Assembly (NCBI GenBank): GCA_919902995.1
Contig: CAKKSD010000050.1
Location: 14,499 to 78,498, forward strand
DNA: 64,000 bases
From: Thermodesulfovibrionia bacterium
GTDB taxonomy: Bacteria > Nitrospirota > Thermodesulfovibrionia > JACRGW01
Reading direction: 5' to 3'
Of this stretch, positions 2,789 through 36,334 are shown in pieces. Each line of letters opens with the position of its first letter. The stretch's first letter is position 1. Made by a program: the position numbers and the translations under genes. The notes beneath the pieces are model-generated. The model saw only the letters and a list, made by a program, of their open reading frames with translations, was not told the DNA's origin and ran no database searches.

Positions 2789-3634
2789 TTAAACACCGAG
2801 AACTTCCCTAAGAACCTTAAGATTCCTTATATCATCCTCTTCCTTTTTCTTCGGAGTTTCAAGTATAAAGGGAATATCTCTTACCCAGGAATGATTCAAG
2901 AAAACCCTGAAACCTTTAATACCGATAAAACCCTTACCTATATTCTCATGACGGTCAATCCTTGAACCAAGGGGCCTCTTTGAATCATTAAGATGGATAA
3001 CCTTCAGTGACTTCATACCTATGGTTTGATTCAATTTATTAAAGACCTCCTCTATTCCCCGGGATGTAGAAATATCATAACCAGAAGAAAAGGCATGGCA
3101 TGTATCAAAACATATACCTCCTACAATTCCACCCTCTGTCTTTTTCAACATCTCTGACAACTGCTCAAAGGTATAACCAATCTCTCCCCTTTCACCTGCT
3201 GTATTCTCAAGGAGAACCTTTGTAGAACCTTTATGTTTTTCAGAGACAGAAATCAGTGTTTCTACCACCCTCTTTTCACCTTCCCTTTCATCAGAATCTC
3301 TGATACTACCAATGTGTGTAATGAGATAATCTGCACCTAAAATATCTGCCCTTTCAATCTCGGAAATAAAGAGTTCCTTAGATTTCCTGTAGAGTTCTTT
3401 ATCAGGTGTGCATAGGTTAATAAGGTATGAGGTATGAACATATAACGGTCTGATGTCTGCCTCTTCCCTGATCTTCCTGAAAAGCCTTACTTCATCATCA
3501 TTCAGTTCTTTTAGTCCCCATCCCCTCGGGCTATGGGAGAATATCTGCATCGTGTTGCATCCGAGTGTCTTAGCCCGTTCTACTGCTTTATGTATCCTTC
3601 CCGCTATAGACACATGAACACCCAAGCGAATCAT
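2789..3634 (-). CDS. nfo: Endonuclease IV (deoxyribonuclease IV)
   Basis: 281 aa TIM-barrel AP endonuclease family 2. The N-terminus MIRLGVHVSIAG....A...GCNTMQIF and HxSYLINL motifs match. Confidence 0.85.
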   Translation of the reverse strand: MIRLGVHVSIAGRIHKAVERAKTLGCNTMQIFSHSPRGWGLKELNDDEVRLFRKIREEADIRPLYVHTSYLINLCTPDKELYRKSKELFISEIERADILGADYLITHIGSIRDSDEREGEKRVVETLISVSEKHKGSTKVLLENTAGERGEIGYTFEQLSEMLKKTEGGIVGGICFDTCHAFSSGYDISTSRGIEEVFNKLNQTIGMKSLKVIHLNDSKRPLGSRIDRHENIGKGFIGIKGFRVFLNHSWVRDIPFILETPKKKEEDDIRNLKVLREVLGV

Positions 3635-3658
3635 ATTTAGAGAGGAACAATATCTTTG

Positions 3659-9809: not shown

Positions 9810-9826
9810 CGTAAATTTGTTTAAGT

Positions 9827-9977
9827 GTCATTCCTGCGGAAGCAGGAATCCAGAATAATGTCATTCCGCACTTGATGCGGAATCCAGTTCCTTAATAAGT
9901 AATAGATTCTCTATTATACGGAGACTTCACCTGTAAGCAAAGGAAGGCCACTGGATTCCCACTTTCGTGGGAATGAC
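9827..9977. repeat. Hairpin-repeat cluster (type cluster): three units GTCATTCC-stem-loop-GGAATCCAG, two forward and one inverted
   Basis: Unit 9827-9853 is GTCATTCCTGCGGAAGCAGGAATCCAG. Unit 9860-9887 is GTCATTCCGCACTTGATGCGGAATCCAG. Unit 9951-9977 is CTGGATTCCCACTTTCGTGGGAATGAC. Confidence 0.7.
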
Positions 9978-10003
9978 AAAAACGAGCTCAATCGGAGGAA
10001 ATT

Positions 10004-10573: not shown

Positions 10574-10676
10574 GTCATTGCGAGGAGTTCCGATTTATCG
10601 GAACGACGAAGCAATCTCAAAGCGTTACGAGTTACGACTTAAGAAAGAGATTGCTTCGCCTTCGGCTCGCAATGAC
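10574..10676. repeat. Nested inverted-repeat element (about 103 bp, MITE-like or structured RNA) with terminal IR GTCATTGCGAG/CTCGCAATGAC
   Basis: The outer IR is 10574-10584 against 10666-10676. The inner IR GAAGCAATCTC/GAGATTGCTTC is 10608-10618 against 10647-10657. Internal hairpins are GTTCCGATttatCGGAAC and GCCTTCGGC, with a tandem GTTACGA GTTACGA. Confidence 0.6.
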
Positions 10677-10694: not shown

Positions 10695-11993
10695 ATGAAA
10701 TTCAGTCCCTTCATACTACTCTGTACCACTGGCCTCTTCGCCATATTCAGTTCCACTATCTCAAAGAGTCCTGTATTGCCATTGTTTGCCTCTCATCTTG
10801 GAGCTGAGCCTTCTGGTGTTGGAATCATCGCCTCTACATCAGCATTCACAGGTATCATTGCAAGCATACCTGCGGGCATACTCTCTGATAGATTCGGAAG
10901 AAAAAGGATGCTGATCCTTTCTGCTGTAGTATTTGCGACTGCCCCCTTCCTTTATCTTTTAGTCACAGAGATTTGGCAACTCGTATTGATCAGGTTCTAT
11001 CACGGCCTTTCAACAGCCATATTCATTCCTGTCTCAATGGCCCTGGTATCAGATCTCTTTCATAAAGAGCGAGGAGAAAAAATAGGATGGTTTTCAACAT
11101 CGACACTCGTTGGAAGGTTTATCGCTCCTGTTGCAGGAGGCAGCATCATCGGCCTGCTAACTTTTAATCCAGATATGAGTTATAAGGTTGTTTATATTGT
11201 ATGCGGGATTGCAGGTGTAATCACCTTACTGCTAACACTGAGGATACCTGCTTTTGGAGATACTGCAACTACAAATCGTCATTCCCACGAAAGTGGGAAT
11301 CCAGACGCCGTCCCTGCGAAAGCAGGGAACTATAAAGATCTGGATTCCTGCTTCCGCAGGAACGACACAGAAATACTAAAACAGTCATCTCAGTCTTGGA
11401 AAGAGACTTTAAAGGCATTCAAGTCAGTAATATCAAATAGGGCTATTCTTATTACCGCTATTGTTGAGGCATCTATACTCTTTGCCTACGGGACATTTGA
11501 AACCTTTCTCCCCCTCTATGTAATAAATATAGGTCTTAGTGCATATGAAATCGGAATATTCCTCTCAGCACAGGTAATTACACTTGCAGTAACAAAACCG
11601 ATTATGGGAAGATTCTCTGACAGACATGGAAGAGGTCCGCAGATATTTGCGGGTGCCATAATCGGAGCAGTCTGCATCGGAAGCTTTTCTCTTTTCAGAT
11701 CTTTTATACCCCTTCTTGCCTTGAGTGTATTATTCGGTCTGAGCCTATCTGTTGTAACATCAGCCACATCTGCCTTTATCGCTGACCTCAGCAGACGTGA
11801 GACCCATGGTTCTGCAATGGGGATTTTGGGATCGATAATGGACATAGGCCATACAGCAGGCCCTCTTGTTTCTGGGATAGTGGCTACCTATTTAGGTTTC
11901 GGCAAGGCATTTATAGTGGCGTCGTTAATCCTTGTAGCAGTAGCCTGCATATTCTTAGCAAAAACCTCTCAACCCAAAAATTTCCTTATGTGA
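10695..11993 (+). CDS. MFS transporter
   Basis: 432 aa with 12 predicted TMs. An MFS loop 2-3 motif (SDRFGRKRM) is present, and a second copy (GRFSDRHGRG) follows TM8. Confidence 0.8.
   Translation: MKFSPFILLCTTGLFAIFSSTISKSPVLPLFASHLGAEPSGVGIIASTSAFTGIIASIPAGILSDRFGRKRMLILSAVVFATAPFLYLLVTEIWQLVLIRFYHGLSTAIFIPVSMALVSDLFHKERGEKIGWFSTSTLVGRFIAPVAGGSIIGLLTFNPDMSYKVVYIVCGIAGVITLLLTLRIPAFGDTATTNRHSHESGNPDAVPAKAGNYKDLDSCFRRNDTEILKQSSQSWKETLKAFKSVISNRAILITAIVEASILFAYGTFETFLPLYVINIGLSAYEIGIFLSAQVITLAVTKPIMGRFSDRHGRGPQIFAGAIIGAVCIGSFSLFRSFIPLLALSVLFGLSLSVVTSATSAFIADLSRRETHGSAMGILGSIMDIGHTAGPLVSGIVATYLGFGKAFIVASLILVAVACIFLAKTSQPKNFLM
11280..11368. repeat. Hairpin-repeat cluster embedded in frame inside the MFS transporter central loop
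   Basis: GTCATTCCCACGAAAGTGGGAATCCAG at 11280-11306, GTCCCTGCGAAAGCAGGGAAC at 11312-11332 and CTGGATTCCTGCTTCCGCAGGAACGAC at 11342-11368. Together they encode ...RHSHESGNPDAVPAKAGNYKDLDSCFRRND... without a stop. Confidence 0.65.
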
Positions 11994-13429
11994 GCTGCCT
12001 CTACAAGCATGCTCGGTATATTAGCATTGTCCTTTTCCTTAAAAGCCTTGATAATCCTTGACGTAATAGAATTATGTTCAAGGTTTACATTGTAATTACA
12101 CCAATCCAGTTTAAGGGATTTTTTAACCTCATCAGGCAGTATTGTGAGCACATCCTCATTGAAAAATGACATTGCTGTTTTCATATCGAACATAAAATTA
12201 ACATGCATGTCTTTCATGCAACTAATATCTTCAGAATTGAGCACATTCAAACCGAGAATTTCCGGGGGAAGTCCTATGGAATAACATGAGGCACAGAAGC
12301 TTATAACTCGAGGTAGCCTTACCTTTCCTACACTCCTTGCATATCCGAAAAGGCCAACATGAAGTTTACGCATTCTCCTTTTTGGCACAAAGCTGGCTAT
12401 ATGATTGATGATTGGGGCGAGATGCTCTATCATTCTTTTATATTCAACGGATACCTTATCTATAATCTCAATACATTTACCTTCATCCAGTTCCTGTCCT
12501 CTCTTCATAGGTGAGGTCTTTAACTTATTAATAGCAGCAATTACATCAGGAACAGGGTTATCATACTTAAATGCTGATTGCGCAGTGAATGTCTGGACAT
12601 CAGGATATTCTTCCAATACATTAGCAATAGTATAGGGAGAAAGATGTCCTCTGAAAGGTGCCGTACCAGCGCCAAGTATCGGATATATATTAACCCCTGT
12701 TTCTTCAGAAAGTCTTCTTAAACGTCGCAGTGCAATTTTGTTGCAAAGAATAGCGCTTACCATTCCATAGTTCATAGCAGGATCTGACCTTGCTAAAAAT
12801 ACCCTCTGGTGTTTTATATCTTTGTCTTTAAGATATTCTCCCATAATATTATGCGCCTCAAGCATATGCACCTTATCTTCAAAAAGTGGTATCACATTTA
12901 TTGATTCAGGTTTACACTCACCTATCCATTCAGATATGGTAATATCGCCTTGATAAAATGGTTGGTTTTGTTTTCCTACAACAAAGTCCTTGTAATAGTA
13001 GTAAACCCTGTTCAGACTTTGGTGGGACATCGTCATAGGAAGAATGACCTCAAAGATAGGTGGAACTTCCTTTCCATAAAAAAGTCTTGCGGCATCACAG
13101 GAACGGGGAATACTTTCAAGGGTCTCTATTAGAACCTTCGCTTCTTCTTTTTCTATATCAGGATTTGGAACCCTCACCGTAAGAAATACATCTTCTCCGA
13201 GTTTTGTATTCTTAAAATAATGTTCATATTTAGTTAGAAGCTTTCGTACCACAAAAGCATCGACCTCTTTACCTTCAGAGTCCCACATCTGTTCATCACA
13301 TCCAAGATGGGAAAAGGCATAATACGCTTCCTGAACCTCATCATCTCCTGACATGTCAGGACTTTCTGCAAAAAATGGTAAAAGGACATTGTCAGGGTGT
13401 TGGGTTGACATTACCCTCGGTATCTTCAT
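11969..13429 (-). CDS. ppcA: Archaeal-type phosphoenolpyruvate carboxylase (PpcA)
   Basis: 486 aa. The N-terminus MKIPRVMSTQHPDN is the hallmark of atPEPC, and the length and overall profile fit that family. Confidence 0.75.
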   Translation of the reverse strand: MKIPRVMSTQHPDNVLLPFFAESPDMSGDDEVQEAYYAFSHLGCDEQMWDSEGKEVDAFVVRKLLTKYEHYFKNTKLGEDVFLTVRVPNPDIEKEEAKVLIETLESIPRSCDAARLFYGKEVPPIFEVILPMTMSHQSLNRVYYYYKDFVVGKQNQPFYQGDITISEWIGECKPESINVIPLFEDKVHMLEAHNIMGEYLKDKDIKHQRVFLARSDPAMNYGMVSAILCNKIALRRLRRLSEETGVNIYPILGAGTAPFRGHLSPYTIANVLEEYPDVQTFTAQSAFKYDNPVPDVIAAINKLKTSPMKRGQELDEGKCIEIIDKVSVEYKRMIEHLAPIINHIASFVPKRRMRKLHVGLFGYARSVGKVRLPRVISFCASCYSIGLPPEILGLNVLNSEDISCMKDMHVNFMFDMKTAMSFFNEDVLTILPDEVKKSLKLDWCNYNVNLEHNSITSRIIKAFKEKDNANIPSMLVEAAHIRKFLG

Positions 13430-16726: not shown

Positions 16727-16731
16727 GTTTT

Positions 16732-16824
16732 GTCATTCCCGTGAAACTTGTCCTCGACTGCGATCGGGGAACGGGAATCCAGAGACATACAAAATACTGG
16801 ATTCCGCATCAAGTGCGGAATGAC
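16732..16824. repeat. Hairpin-repeat cluster: a long unit (51 bp) plus an inverted unit identical to the reverse complement of unit 9860-9887
   Basis: GTCATTCCCGT...ACGGGAATCCAG spans 16732-16782. CTGGATTCCGCATCAAGTGCGGAATGAC spans 16797-16824 and is the exact reverse complement of 9860-9887. Confidence 0.7.
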
Positions 16825-16924
16825 GACGGTGTTTGTTTTTTAGTTCATGATACCCCACTGCTTGCTGCGAGGAGGTTCATTGTAAATCGTAATAATACAT
16901 AGTTCTATGCTGAATGGGATCTCT

Positions 16925-36091: not shown

Positions 36092-36129
36092 ATTCTTGAT
36101 AAGATTCAGAAAGAATGTTATAGTTCACT

Positions 36130-36294
36130 GACAGGCGAGACGCCTGTCCTACTGATGCTAAAACAATCACCCATATTTGGGTAGGACGGCCGTCTCGGCT
36201 GTCTGTTTTTCTGTCATTCCCACGGAAGTGGGCATCCAGAGAATAAATATTTGCTGGAGCTTAATAACTGGATTCCTGCCTTCGCAGGAATGAC
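36130..36294. repeat. Composite hairpin/repeat cluster between atpE and gltX
   Basis: GACAGGCG-aga-CGCCTGTC at 36130-36148. GTCCTAC...GTAGGAC at 36146-36187. GACGGCCGtctCGGCTGTC followed by TGTTTTTCT. Family units GTCATTCCCACGGAAGTGGGCATCCAG at 36213-36239 and CTGGATTCCTGCCTTCGCAGGAATGAC at 36268-36294. Confidence 0.6.
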
Positions 36295-36334
36295 GATATT
36301 ACTAAAGTCATTTGAAATAAATTAGAATGGTTTC

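Follow-up and report, generated by a model that had tools for sequence, protein, structure and literature searches.

The Neisseria Transformation Sequence (NTS) is a 28-nt repeat, CGTCATTCCCGCGMAVGCGGGAATCYRG, that includes the classical dRS3 motif ATTCCC-N8-GGGAAT and is bound by SsnA, a small GIY-YIG nuclease which cuts adjacent to it and acts on single-stranded DNA (ssDNA) only (Chenal et al. 2025, PMC11893778). NTS-like "Ssn-related motifs" (SRM) go with Ssn genes across phyla, and a role of NTS in transformation has been shown for Neisseria only; NTS and SRM are treated as gene-flanking repeats in that paper, in whose text we found no mention of in-frame or intragenic copies (PMC11893778). 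Our literature searches returned no other paper on NTS/SRM, and none that connects GIY-YIG nucleases with the Rickettsia palindromic elements (RPEs; Ogata et al. 2000). According to PMC10969869, RPEs are ~150 bp long, Rickettsia-specific and intergenic, but unusually often also lie in frame in unrelated genes at fold-compatible positions, each family with a conserved peptide; the same paper cites intragenic ERIC and other MITEs (miniature transposable elements with inverted repeats) that form in-frame fusions as precedent (Delihas 2007). Here we compare with these systems a 64-kb stretch (41.6% G+C; hereafter the window) of contig CAKKSD010000050.1 from a Thermodesulfovibrionia bacterium (Nitrospirota), in which a 90-nt composite of NTS-like units lies in frame within a gene for a major facilitator superfamily (MFS) transporter; a further ~11 kb of the contig was also inspected for genes.

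An in-frame composite repeat in an MFS transporter gene

The composite occupies the DNA for the loop between transmembrane helices 6 and 7 (TM6-TM7) and consists of the following parts, listed with the host gene and one further candidate feature.

10695..11993, plus strand: MFS transporter gene of 432 aa which carries the insertion, recognized from its open reading frame (ORF), Pfam MFS_1, an AlphaFold2 model, syntenic orthologs and dN/dS
11277..11366, plus strand: 90-nt composite repeat, covering codons 195-224 exactly (peptide RHSHESGNPDAVPAKAGNYKDLDSCFRRND), with inverted terminal units and a 35-nt interior
11277..11304, plus strand: left terminal unit, NTS-like hairpin CGTCATTCCCACGAAAGTGGGAATCCAG, matching the NTS consensus, with an identical 27-mer at 9951-9977 (minus strand)
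11310..11330, plus strand: inner truncated unit GTCCCTGCGAAAGCAGGGAAC, a stem-loop of its own in the fold, with a CCTGCG-AA-GCAGG stem in common with 9827-9853
11340..11367, minus strand: right terminal unit, TGTCGTTCCTGCGGAAGCAGGAATCCAG as read on the minus strand, 26/27 identical to the unit at 9827-9853
11247..11263, plus strand: tentatively, what is left in decayed form of a different and older hairpin repeat, CCTGCTTTTGGAGATAC (CCCCCCTTTGGAAAAGG in locus L206), of weak resemblance

The initial annotation, made from the DNA alone, had placed three units of an intergenic hairpin family inside the 432-aa ORF without interruption of the frame, and all three were present at those positions (GTCATTCCCACGAAAGTGGGAATCCAG at 11278-11304, GTCCCTGCGAAAGCAGGGAAC at 11310-11330 and CTGGATTCCTGCTTCCGCAGGAACGAC at 11340-11366, plus-strand letters); however, only the two terminal units were complete, the middle one being a truncated, degenerate copy. 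The composite folds as a single long hairpin (dG -46.7 kcal/mol; z -7.75 versus shuffles), the arms of which (11278-11305 and 11339-11366) show 79% complementarity across a gap of 33 nt. Rfam returned only sub-threshold chance matches for the element (mir-550, 28.5 bits versus a gathering score of 81). The inserted peptide, for which TATTNR/HSHESGNPDAVPAK is one predicted junction peptide, was hydrophilic as claimed but not markedly His/Pro-rich, since it holds two His and two Pro among 30 residues. A protein-database search with the 40-aa loop peptide yielded no candidates.

The stretch 11277-11366 is an insertion relative to orthologs, because the TM6-TM7 loop (from "IP" after TM6 to "W-x-ET") spans 55 aa in the window protein and 16-18 aa in ~50 orthologs (56-72% identity). 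Codon alignments showed the 90 nt to be missing from the syntenic orthologs, in agreement with the ~90-bp gap that the initial annotation had proposed to look for; moreover the gene order (ChrB-like gene, 94-aa gene, (Usp), HD, MFS, phosphoenolpyruvate (PEP) carboxylase) was kept in loci L003, L004, L005 and L207, which supports the orthology of the compared MFS genes. The opposite outcome, orthologs carrying the same loop sequence, was also looked for, and none of the homologs searched carried it.

Three other origins of the similarity were ruled out: i) coincidental resemblance to the repeat, as an exact 27-mer is shared versus 0 expected; ii) derivation of the intergenic repeats from the MFS gene, as the family spans many phyla; and iii) an ancestral loop sequence, as it is absent from all orthologs.

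The same gene with its insert was found in a separate European Nucleotide Archive (ENA) assembly from Hainich groundwater well H51, with one mismatch in 3264 nt, and was found in this one population only. Insert junctions were identical in the 79.7-kb contig of the metagenome-assembled genome (MAG) and the 3.3-kb ENA contig, which makes an assembly chimera unlikely. An artefact of this kind, or a fresh pseudogene that is open by chance, is extremely improbable. Short repeats can mislead assemblers, and four of the six frames through the 90-nt element contain no stop, so that an open in-frame insertion needs little luck and an open frame by itself is weak proof of function; but in addition to the identical junctions in the two contigs, the flanks on both sides continue one MFS frame with conserved residues, and comparable in-frame inserts were present in many independent ortholog assemblies.

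The MFS gene appears intact as judged from its sequence. Its product matched Pfam MFS_1 (E = 6e-61) and retained all columns that were invariant in a 64-sequence alignment, and dN/dS of the core (Nei-Gojobori) versus the four nearest relatives was 0.13-0.17. The AlphaFold2 model built from that alignment (mean pLDDT 87.7, pTM 0.85) had helix bundles on either side of residues 183-248, i.e., the 6+6 fold with a central loop which, together with the MFS_1 match, places the protein in the MFS. Helices spanned 164-182 (TM6), 225-247 and 249-278, and the disorder between them at 194-224 (pLDDT <50) was the sole internal low-confidence stretch of the model, confirming the TM6-TM7 position given in the initial annotation. 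The loop presumably faces the cytoplasm, as general MFS topology would have it. Thus the earlier view that the gene probably still works is supported by the retained invariant residues, the confident model outside the insert and the dN/dS; the protein probably still folds and transports with 30 additional hydrophilic, unstructured residues. A scan of the MFS gene revealed no terminator-like site, and its promoter-like sites were at chance level.

At its 3' end (window 11969-11993) the MFS gene overlaps by 25 bp the 3' end of a convergent gene for an archaeal-type PEP carboxylase (PF14010; minus strand, 11969-13429); the same 25-bp overlap is called in loci L001 and L002.

The repeat unit and its relatives in the window

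The pattern GTCATTCC-N8-14-GGAATCCAG occurred six times in the window versus 0.00 expected from shuffles. Ten units were located altogether, three in the MFS gene and seven in the non-coding 9.6% (the share left by a greedy ORF map), the latter including the intergenic unit at 9827-9853 that the initial annotation had correctly pointed out. The exact 27-mer of the left unit was repeated at 9951-9977 (minus strand) and had a two-mismatch copy at 36213-36239, with 0 expected by chance. Three intergenic composites belong to the same family:

9826..9978, no strand assigned: units at 9826-9853 (plus), 9859-9887 (plus) and 9951-9978 (minus)
16731..16825, no strand assigned: long-loop unit (plus) and unit (minus); dG -36.7, z -4.2
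36212..36295, no strand assigned: composite upstream of a Glu-tRNA-synthetase-like gene; dG -30.1, z -3.8

The closest relative of the MFS copy was the composite at 9826-9978 (dG -60.0, z -7.2), which lies 1.3 kb upstream in inverted orientation and is tied to it by two inverted repeats, I1 and I2 (36 and 35 nt; 92% and 91% complementary). At its two ends the MFS copy has units that were 27/27 and 26/27 identical to units of this composite, and the single difference, an A-to-G change in the right unit relative to 9827-9853, was synonymous in the MFS frame (AAT to AAC). Given this near-identity, the two composites would seem to have a recent source in common, and the insertion is probably recent. 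All four composites of the window consist of a forward and a reverse unit that face each other over a short interior, and each folds as one long hairpin; no direct repeat (target-site duplication) was common to the flanks of any of the four.

When eight window units were compared, (Y)GTCATTCC and GGAATCCAG proved to be constant flanks and the apical stem varied, two of its pairs showing double compensatory changes (C-G to U-A and A-U to G-C). In these units 89% of cells were paired, versus 17-48% when the partners were slid. Compared with the NTS consensus CGTCATTCCCGCGMAVGCGGGAATCYRG, the unit at 11277-11304 agreed in 26 of the 28 positions, with the orienting 5' (H)GTCAT flank among them, and its two mismatches amounted to one compensatory G-C to A-T stem pair. 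Three further window units matched the consensus with two to four mismatches; a G before GTC was found in no window unit. By sequence and structure we class the unit as an NTS/SRM-type repeat, and the composite as REPIN-like in plan. With this the analysis goes beyond the initial annotation in three respects: the unit is placed in a family known from the literature (NTS/dRS3/SRM), the three units together make up a single REPIN-like composite, and in related genomes the same loop is occupied by other repeat families.

A pattern scan with one genome per species returned at least 120 stretches, and the hosts among those listed included Dehalococcoidia, Gamma-, Beta- and Alphaproteobacteria, Desulfobacterota, Planctomycetes, Patescibacteria, Bacteroidota, Nitrospirota, Bradyrhizobium and Neisseria lactamica. 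On one Nitrospirales chromosome (locus L018, 3501-4036), two NTS-like units bracketed ~25 tandem 21-nt copies that read AGMTEGR in one frame. Two PLSDB entries (NZ_CP119140.1 and NZ_CP119142.1; locus L209) proved to be 2.17-Mb Neisseria gonorrhoeae chromosomes filed as plasmids and almost unannotated.

Other hairpins lay close to the NTS-type composites of the window. At 10574-10676, in the gap from the HD-domain gene to the start codon of the MFS gene, a second family, GTCATTGCGAGG...CGACGAAGCAATCTC facing GAGATTGCTTCG...CTCGCAATGAC, formed an inverted pair (fold -45.8 kcal/mol, z -6.8) which starts with GTCAT and, to judge by its letters, may be another SRM variant. At 36100-36210, unrelated G+C-rich hairpins (GACAGGCGAGACGCCTGTC; GGTAGGACGGCCGTCTCGGCTGTC) stood immediately upstream of the composite at 36212-36295; hence hairpin repeats of different kinds form clusters here, as in Neisseria mosaic elements.

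The TM6-TM7 loop as a repeated site of insertion

Homologs of the MFS protein run to thousands, of which the best 120 (mostly 390-400 aa) were examined. Internal insertions of at least 6 aa were found in 31 of these proteins, all at core positions 187-194 (the TM6-TM7 loop), and at no other internal site. Thirty-one out of 31 internal insertions among 120 homologs thus fell in one loop, which makes the family a natural experiment on the tolerance of a membrane protein, and the TM6-TM7 loop is the only internal site that tolerates extra residues in this protein family. The homolog inserts were 9 to 73 aa long and belonged to at least three hairpin-repeat families, not of the NTS type, with peptides like "PPSPPFSKGG...PPLEKGDxGGF" or "PLPPGERE...GGGEGEGE". 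At the DNA level they were hairpins of G/C runs, with fold z of -3 to -9 versus -1.5 to +0.2 for insert-free loops. In a neighbor-joining tree of the core, insert-bearing sequences stood at no fewer than eight separate places among insert-free ones, and the window protein nested in a clade whose other members all bear a "KGG"-type insert.

Two of these loops can be described more closely. In locus L134, a composite (CCCTCTCCC..GGGGAGAGGG plus CCCCCTCCC..GGGAGGGGG) lay in frame in the MFS loop at 3553-3640 and had a near-identical intergenic copy at 2894-2969, ~600 bp upstream, an arrangement that mirrors the window; therefore the homolog inserts, too, belong to intergenic repeat families. In locus L004 (6607-6876; ortholog P0005, 470 aa), the insert of 73 aa held at least five C-run/G-run hairpins of the CCCCCTTTGAAAAAGGGGG type in frame (dG -101.8 kcal/mol). 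"PSPxGEGxGEG"-type repeats resembling the "GERE" inserts of some MFS orthologs were also seen around the NTS pairs of L209.

In view of these data the composite is most likely a tolerated recent insertion of selfish or neutral repeat DNA at the one internal position where the protein permits extra residues. A 90-bp NTS-type composite would have been copied into the DNA for the disordered cytoplasmic TM6-TM7 loop; the copying could have been hairpin-mediated template switching or recombination, or alternatively may have involved a trans-acting enzyme, for example an Ssn nuclease of the GIY-YIG type or a transposase whose gene lies elsewhere. The insertion would have survived because its length is a multiple of three, because it is stop-free in frame and because it sits at the only tolerant internal site, and, like the RPEs, it would be selfish or neutral DNA which has not been purged by selection. 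Its effect on the protein would then be neutral.

Several points weigh against this account: i) An empty-site allele of the same population was not found in databases, and the nearest relatives (78-83% aa identity) bear a different insert at the same place, for which two reasons exact boundaries and a target-site duplication are not definable; ii) The two insert-bearing assemblies may have been built from one read set or from sister sets; iii) The dN/dS covers the whole lineage, not the period since insertion, and the full-length MFS protein and its working are predicted from the gene and the model; iv) The strict SRM pattern, HGTCWYN(0-2)YYVSBRHN(0-5)WNVSBRGN(0-2)RNCYNB, matches no window unit exactly; v) A six-frame motif scan revealed no GIY-YIG (Ssn) or RAYT-like ORF in the window, nor was one found in the ~11 kb extension, so that ~75 kb of the genome were covered. 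As to the fourth point, the units were missed because the apical stems (CAC/GTG, TGC/GCA) lie outside the SRM pattern, which was read from the plain text of PMC11893778 with possible loss in transcription; the pattern had only two unrelated matches, near the random level. As to the fifth, the genes called in the extension included no GIY-YIG gene, the RAYT motif scan returned no window ORF in which HUH and Y-x-x-N-P motifs are combined, and motif scans of 205 fetched loci yielded no credible Ssn or RAYT-like ORF.

The initial annotation had proposed a domestication of the repeat. Its first part, an in-frame insertion that lengthens the loop, stands, since orthologs lack it; its second part, an acquired function, was not supported. 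Functional domestication would mean a structure in the middle of the mRNA which would slow ribosomes or tune mRNA stability, the kind of regulatory element that the initial annotation had named as its alternative, or a loop that serves as a new regulatory or interaction surface. The great stability of the hairpin speaks for it, as does the recurrence of loop inserts across related lineages, and in MFS proteins the central loop could plausibly serve as a surface for regulation. However, the inserts of related lineages are unrelated in sequence and length (9 to 73 aa, at least three repeat families), and thus fit tolerance rather than a selected function. Moreover the window insert is near-identical to intergenic copies without a sign of adaptation, is predicted to be disordered, occurs in one population only, and comes with neither an Rfam family match nor a terminator-like site in the gene. 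We therefore regard an acquired function as very unlikely.

On the other hand, the units might matter as DNA rather than as protein, either as Ssn ssDNA cleavage sites, as in Neisseria, or recombination hot spots within the gene that would influence horizontal exchange or diversification of the locus, or because repeats home into older repeats, with the loop as their nursery. The match to a consensus that SsnA binds and cuts as ssDNA is in favor of such a tag. So are the other repeat family at the same site in sister sequences of the window's clade, the possible remnant adjoining the insert, and the two loci where the repeat in the loop has its nearest copy 0.6-1.3 kb upstream. But an Ssn gene was not found in the ~75 kb, the transformation role is established for Neisseria only, survivorship alone accounts for the clustering of inserts at one permissive site, and the remnant is of weak resemblance; we consider a DNA-level tag distinctly unlikely.

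The candidate remnant, CCTGCTTTTGGAGATAC, stands directly upstream of the NTS composite and emerged from a codon alignment with L206, the closest ortholog (83% identity). By its sequence it hints, if weakly, that a decaying older repeat was already present in the loop when the NTS element arrived, and this would explain the eight additional loop residues which are left over after the 30 inserted codons. It is also conceivable, if unlikely, that the loop acts as a self-reinforcing landing pad, where a resident hairpin repeat draws later families or is replaced by them and where NTS sites would expose the gene to Ssn-type ssDNA cleavage and so alter the exchange of the locus between cells. If so, repeat families would turn over inside coding sequence, KGG-type first and then NTS-type in the lineage of the window.

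In-frame copies elsewhere and comparison with known palindromic elements

Among 147 sampled NTS-like units from other phyla, five were situated inside Pfam-confirmed long ORFs in which the domain continues on both sides:

L083, 7194-7220: NTS-like pair in a UvrA-like ABC protein, in frame, Pfam-confirmed
L100, 1690-1716: NTS-like pair in TruB, in frame, Pfam-confirmed
L047, 6951-6977: NTS-like pair in a queuine tRNA-ribosyltransferase (TGT), in frame, Pfam-confirmed
L098, 1508-1534: NTS-like pair in an N6_N4 DNA methylase, in frame, Pfam-confirmed
L122, 510-536: NTS-like pair in an MmeI-like enzyme, in frame, Pfam-confirmed

The peptides inserted in these five proteins were the same translations as that of the MFS insert (…HPREGGDP…LDSRLRGND…, VIPAKAGIQ…), and the hydrophilic frame (H-x-R-E-x-G-x-P / LDSRLRGND) was used in most of them. 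Thus in-frame residence is a low-frequency but general property of the NTS-like family. Annotators who meet peptides such as HSxESGNP, VIPAKAGIQ and LDSxFRxND within real proteins should read them as flags of repeat insertions rather than as conserved motifs. In Ssn biology, the MFS case prompts one to ask what a cleavage site would do within a transcribed gene.

With the Neisseria NTS/dRS3/SRM repeats the window family shares the 28-nt unit (CGTCATTCC-stem-loop-stem-GGAATCCAG), the orienting 5' flank, the ATTCC...GGAAT core, a multicopy state and a distribution over many phyla. It differs from them in an apical stem changed by compensation, in a strict SRM pattern that is left unmatched and in that no ssnA was found nearby.

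The resemblance to the REP, REPIN and BIME elements of Enterobacteria and Pseudomonas, which are mobilized by RAYT, concerns architecture: two short inverted palindromes with a short spacer and a long hairpin, mostly intergenic and clustered. In the MFS composite two inverted REP-like palindromes do form one hairpin across a short spacer, as they do in the three intergenic composites. However, the window family lacks the GTAG head, the window showed no RAYT gene, and the MFS copy is intragenic. ERIC and other MITEs, as well as the Correia elements of Neisseria, are likewise small, non-autonomous, bounded by terminal inverted repeats and sometimes located inside ORFs; but they are larger, and several have defined target-site duplications, of which none is discernible for the MFS composite.

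The closest parallel is offered by the RPEs. As with RPEs, the MFS element would be a small palindromic repeat that occurs both between genes and in frame within a conserved gene, where it adds a peptide at a permissive, fold-compatible position and leaves the host gene intact; on the other hand it is 90 bp long, is made of NTS-type 28-nt units and resides in a Nitrospirota genome, and its likeness to RPEs is a functional one. Palindromic repeats inside working genes, documented mainly for Rickettsia, are hereby extended to the phylum-spanning NTS/SRM family of Ssn substrates. By this functional analogy the phenomenon is already known, being the same as that of the Rickettsia palindromic elements, and the novelty is limited to a different, recently characterized repeat family, a different phylum, and one loop which has been colonized repeatedly by at least three repeat families.

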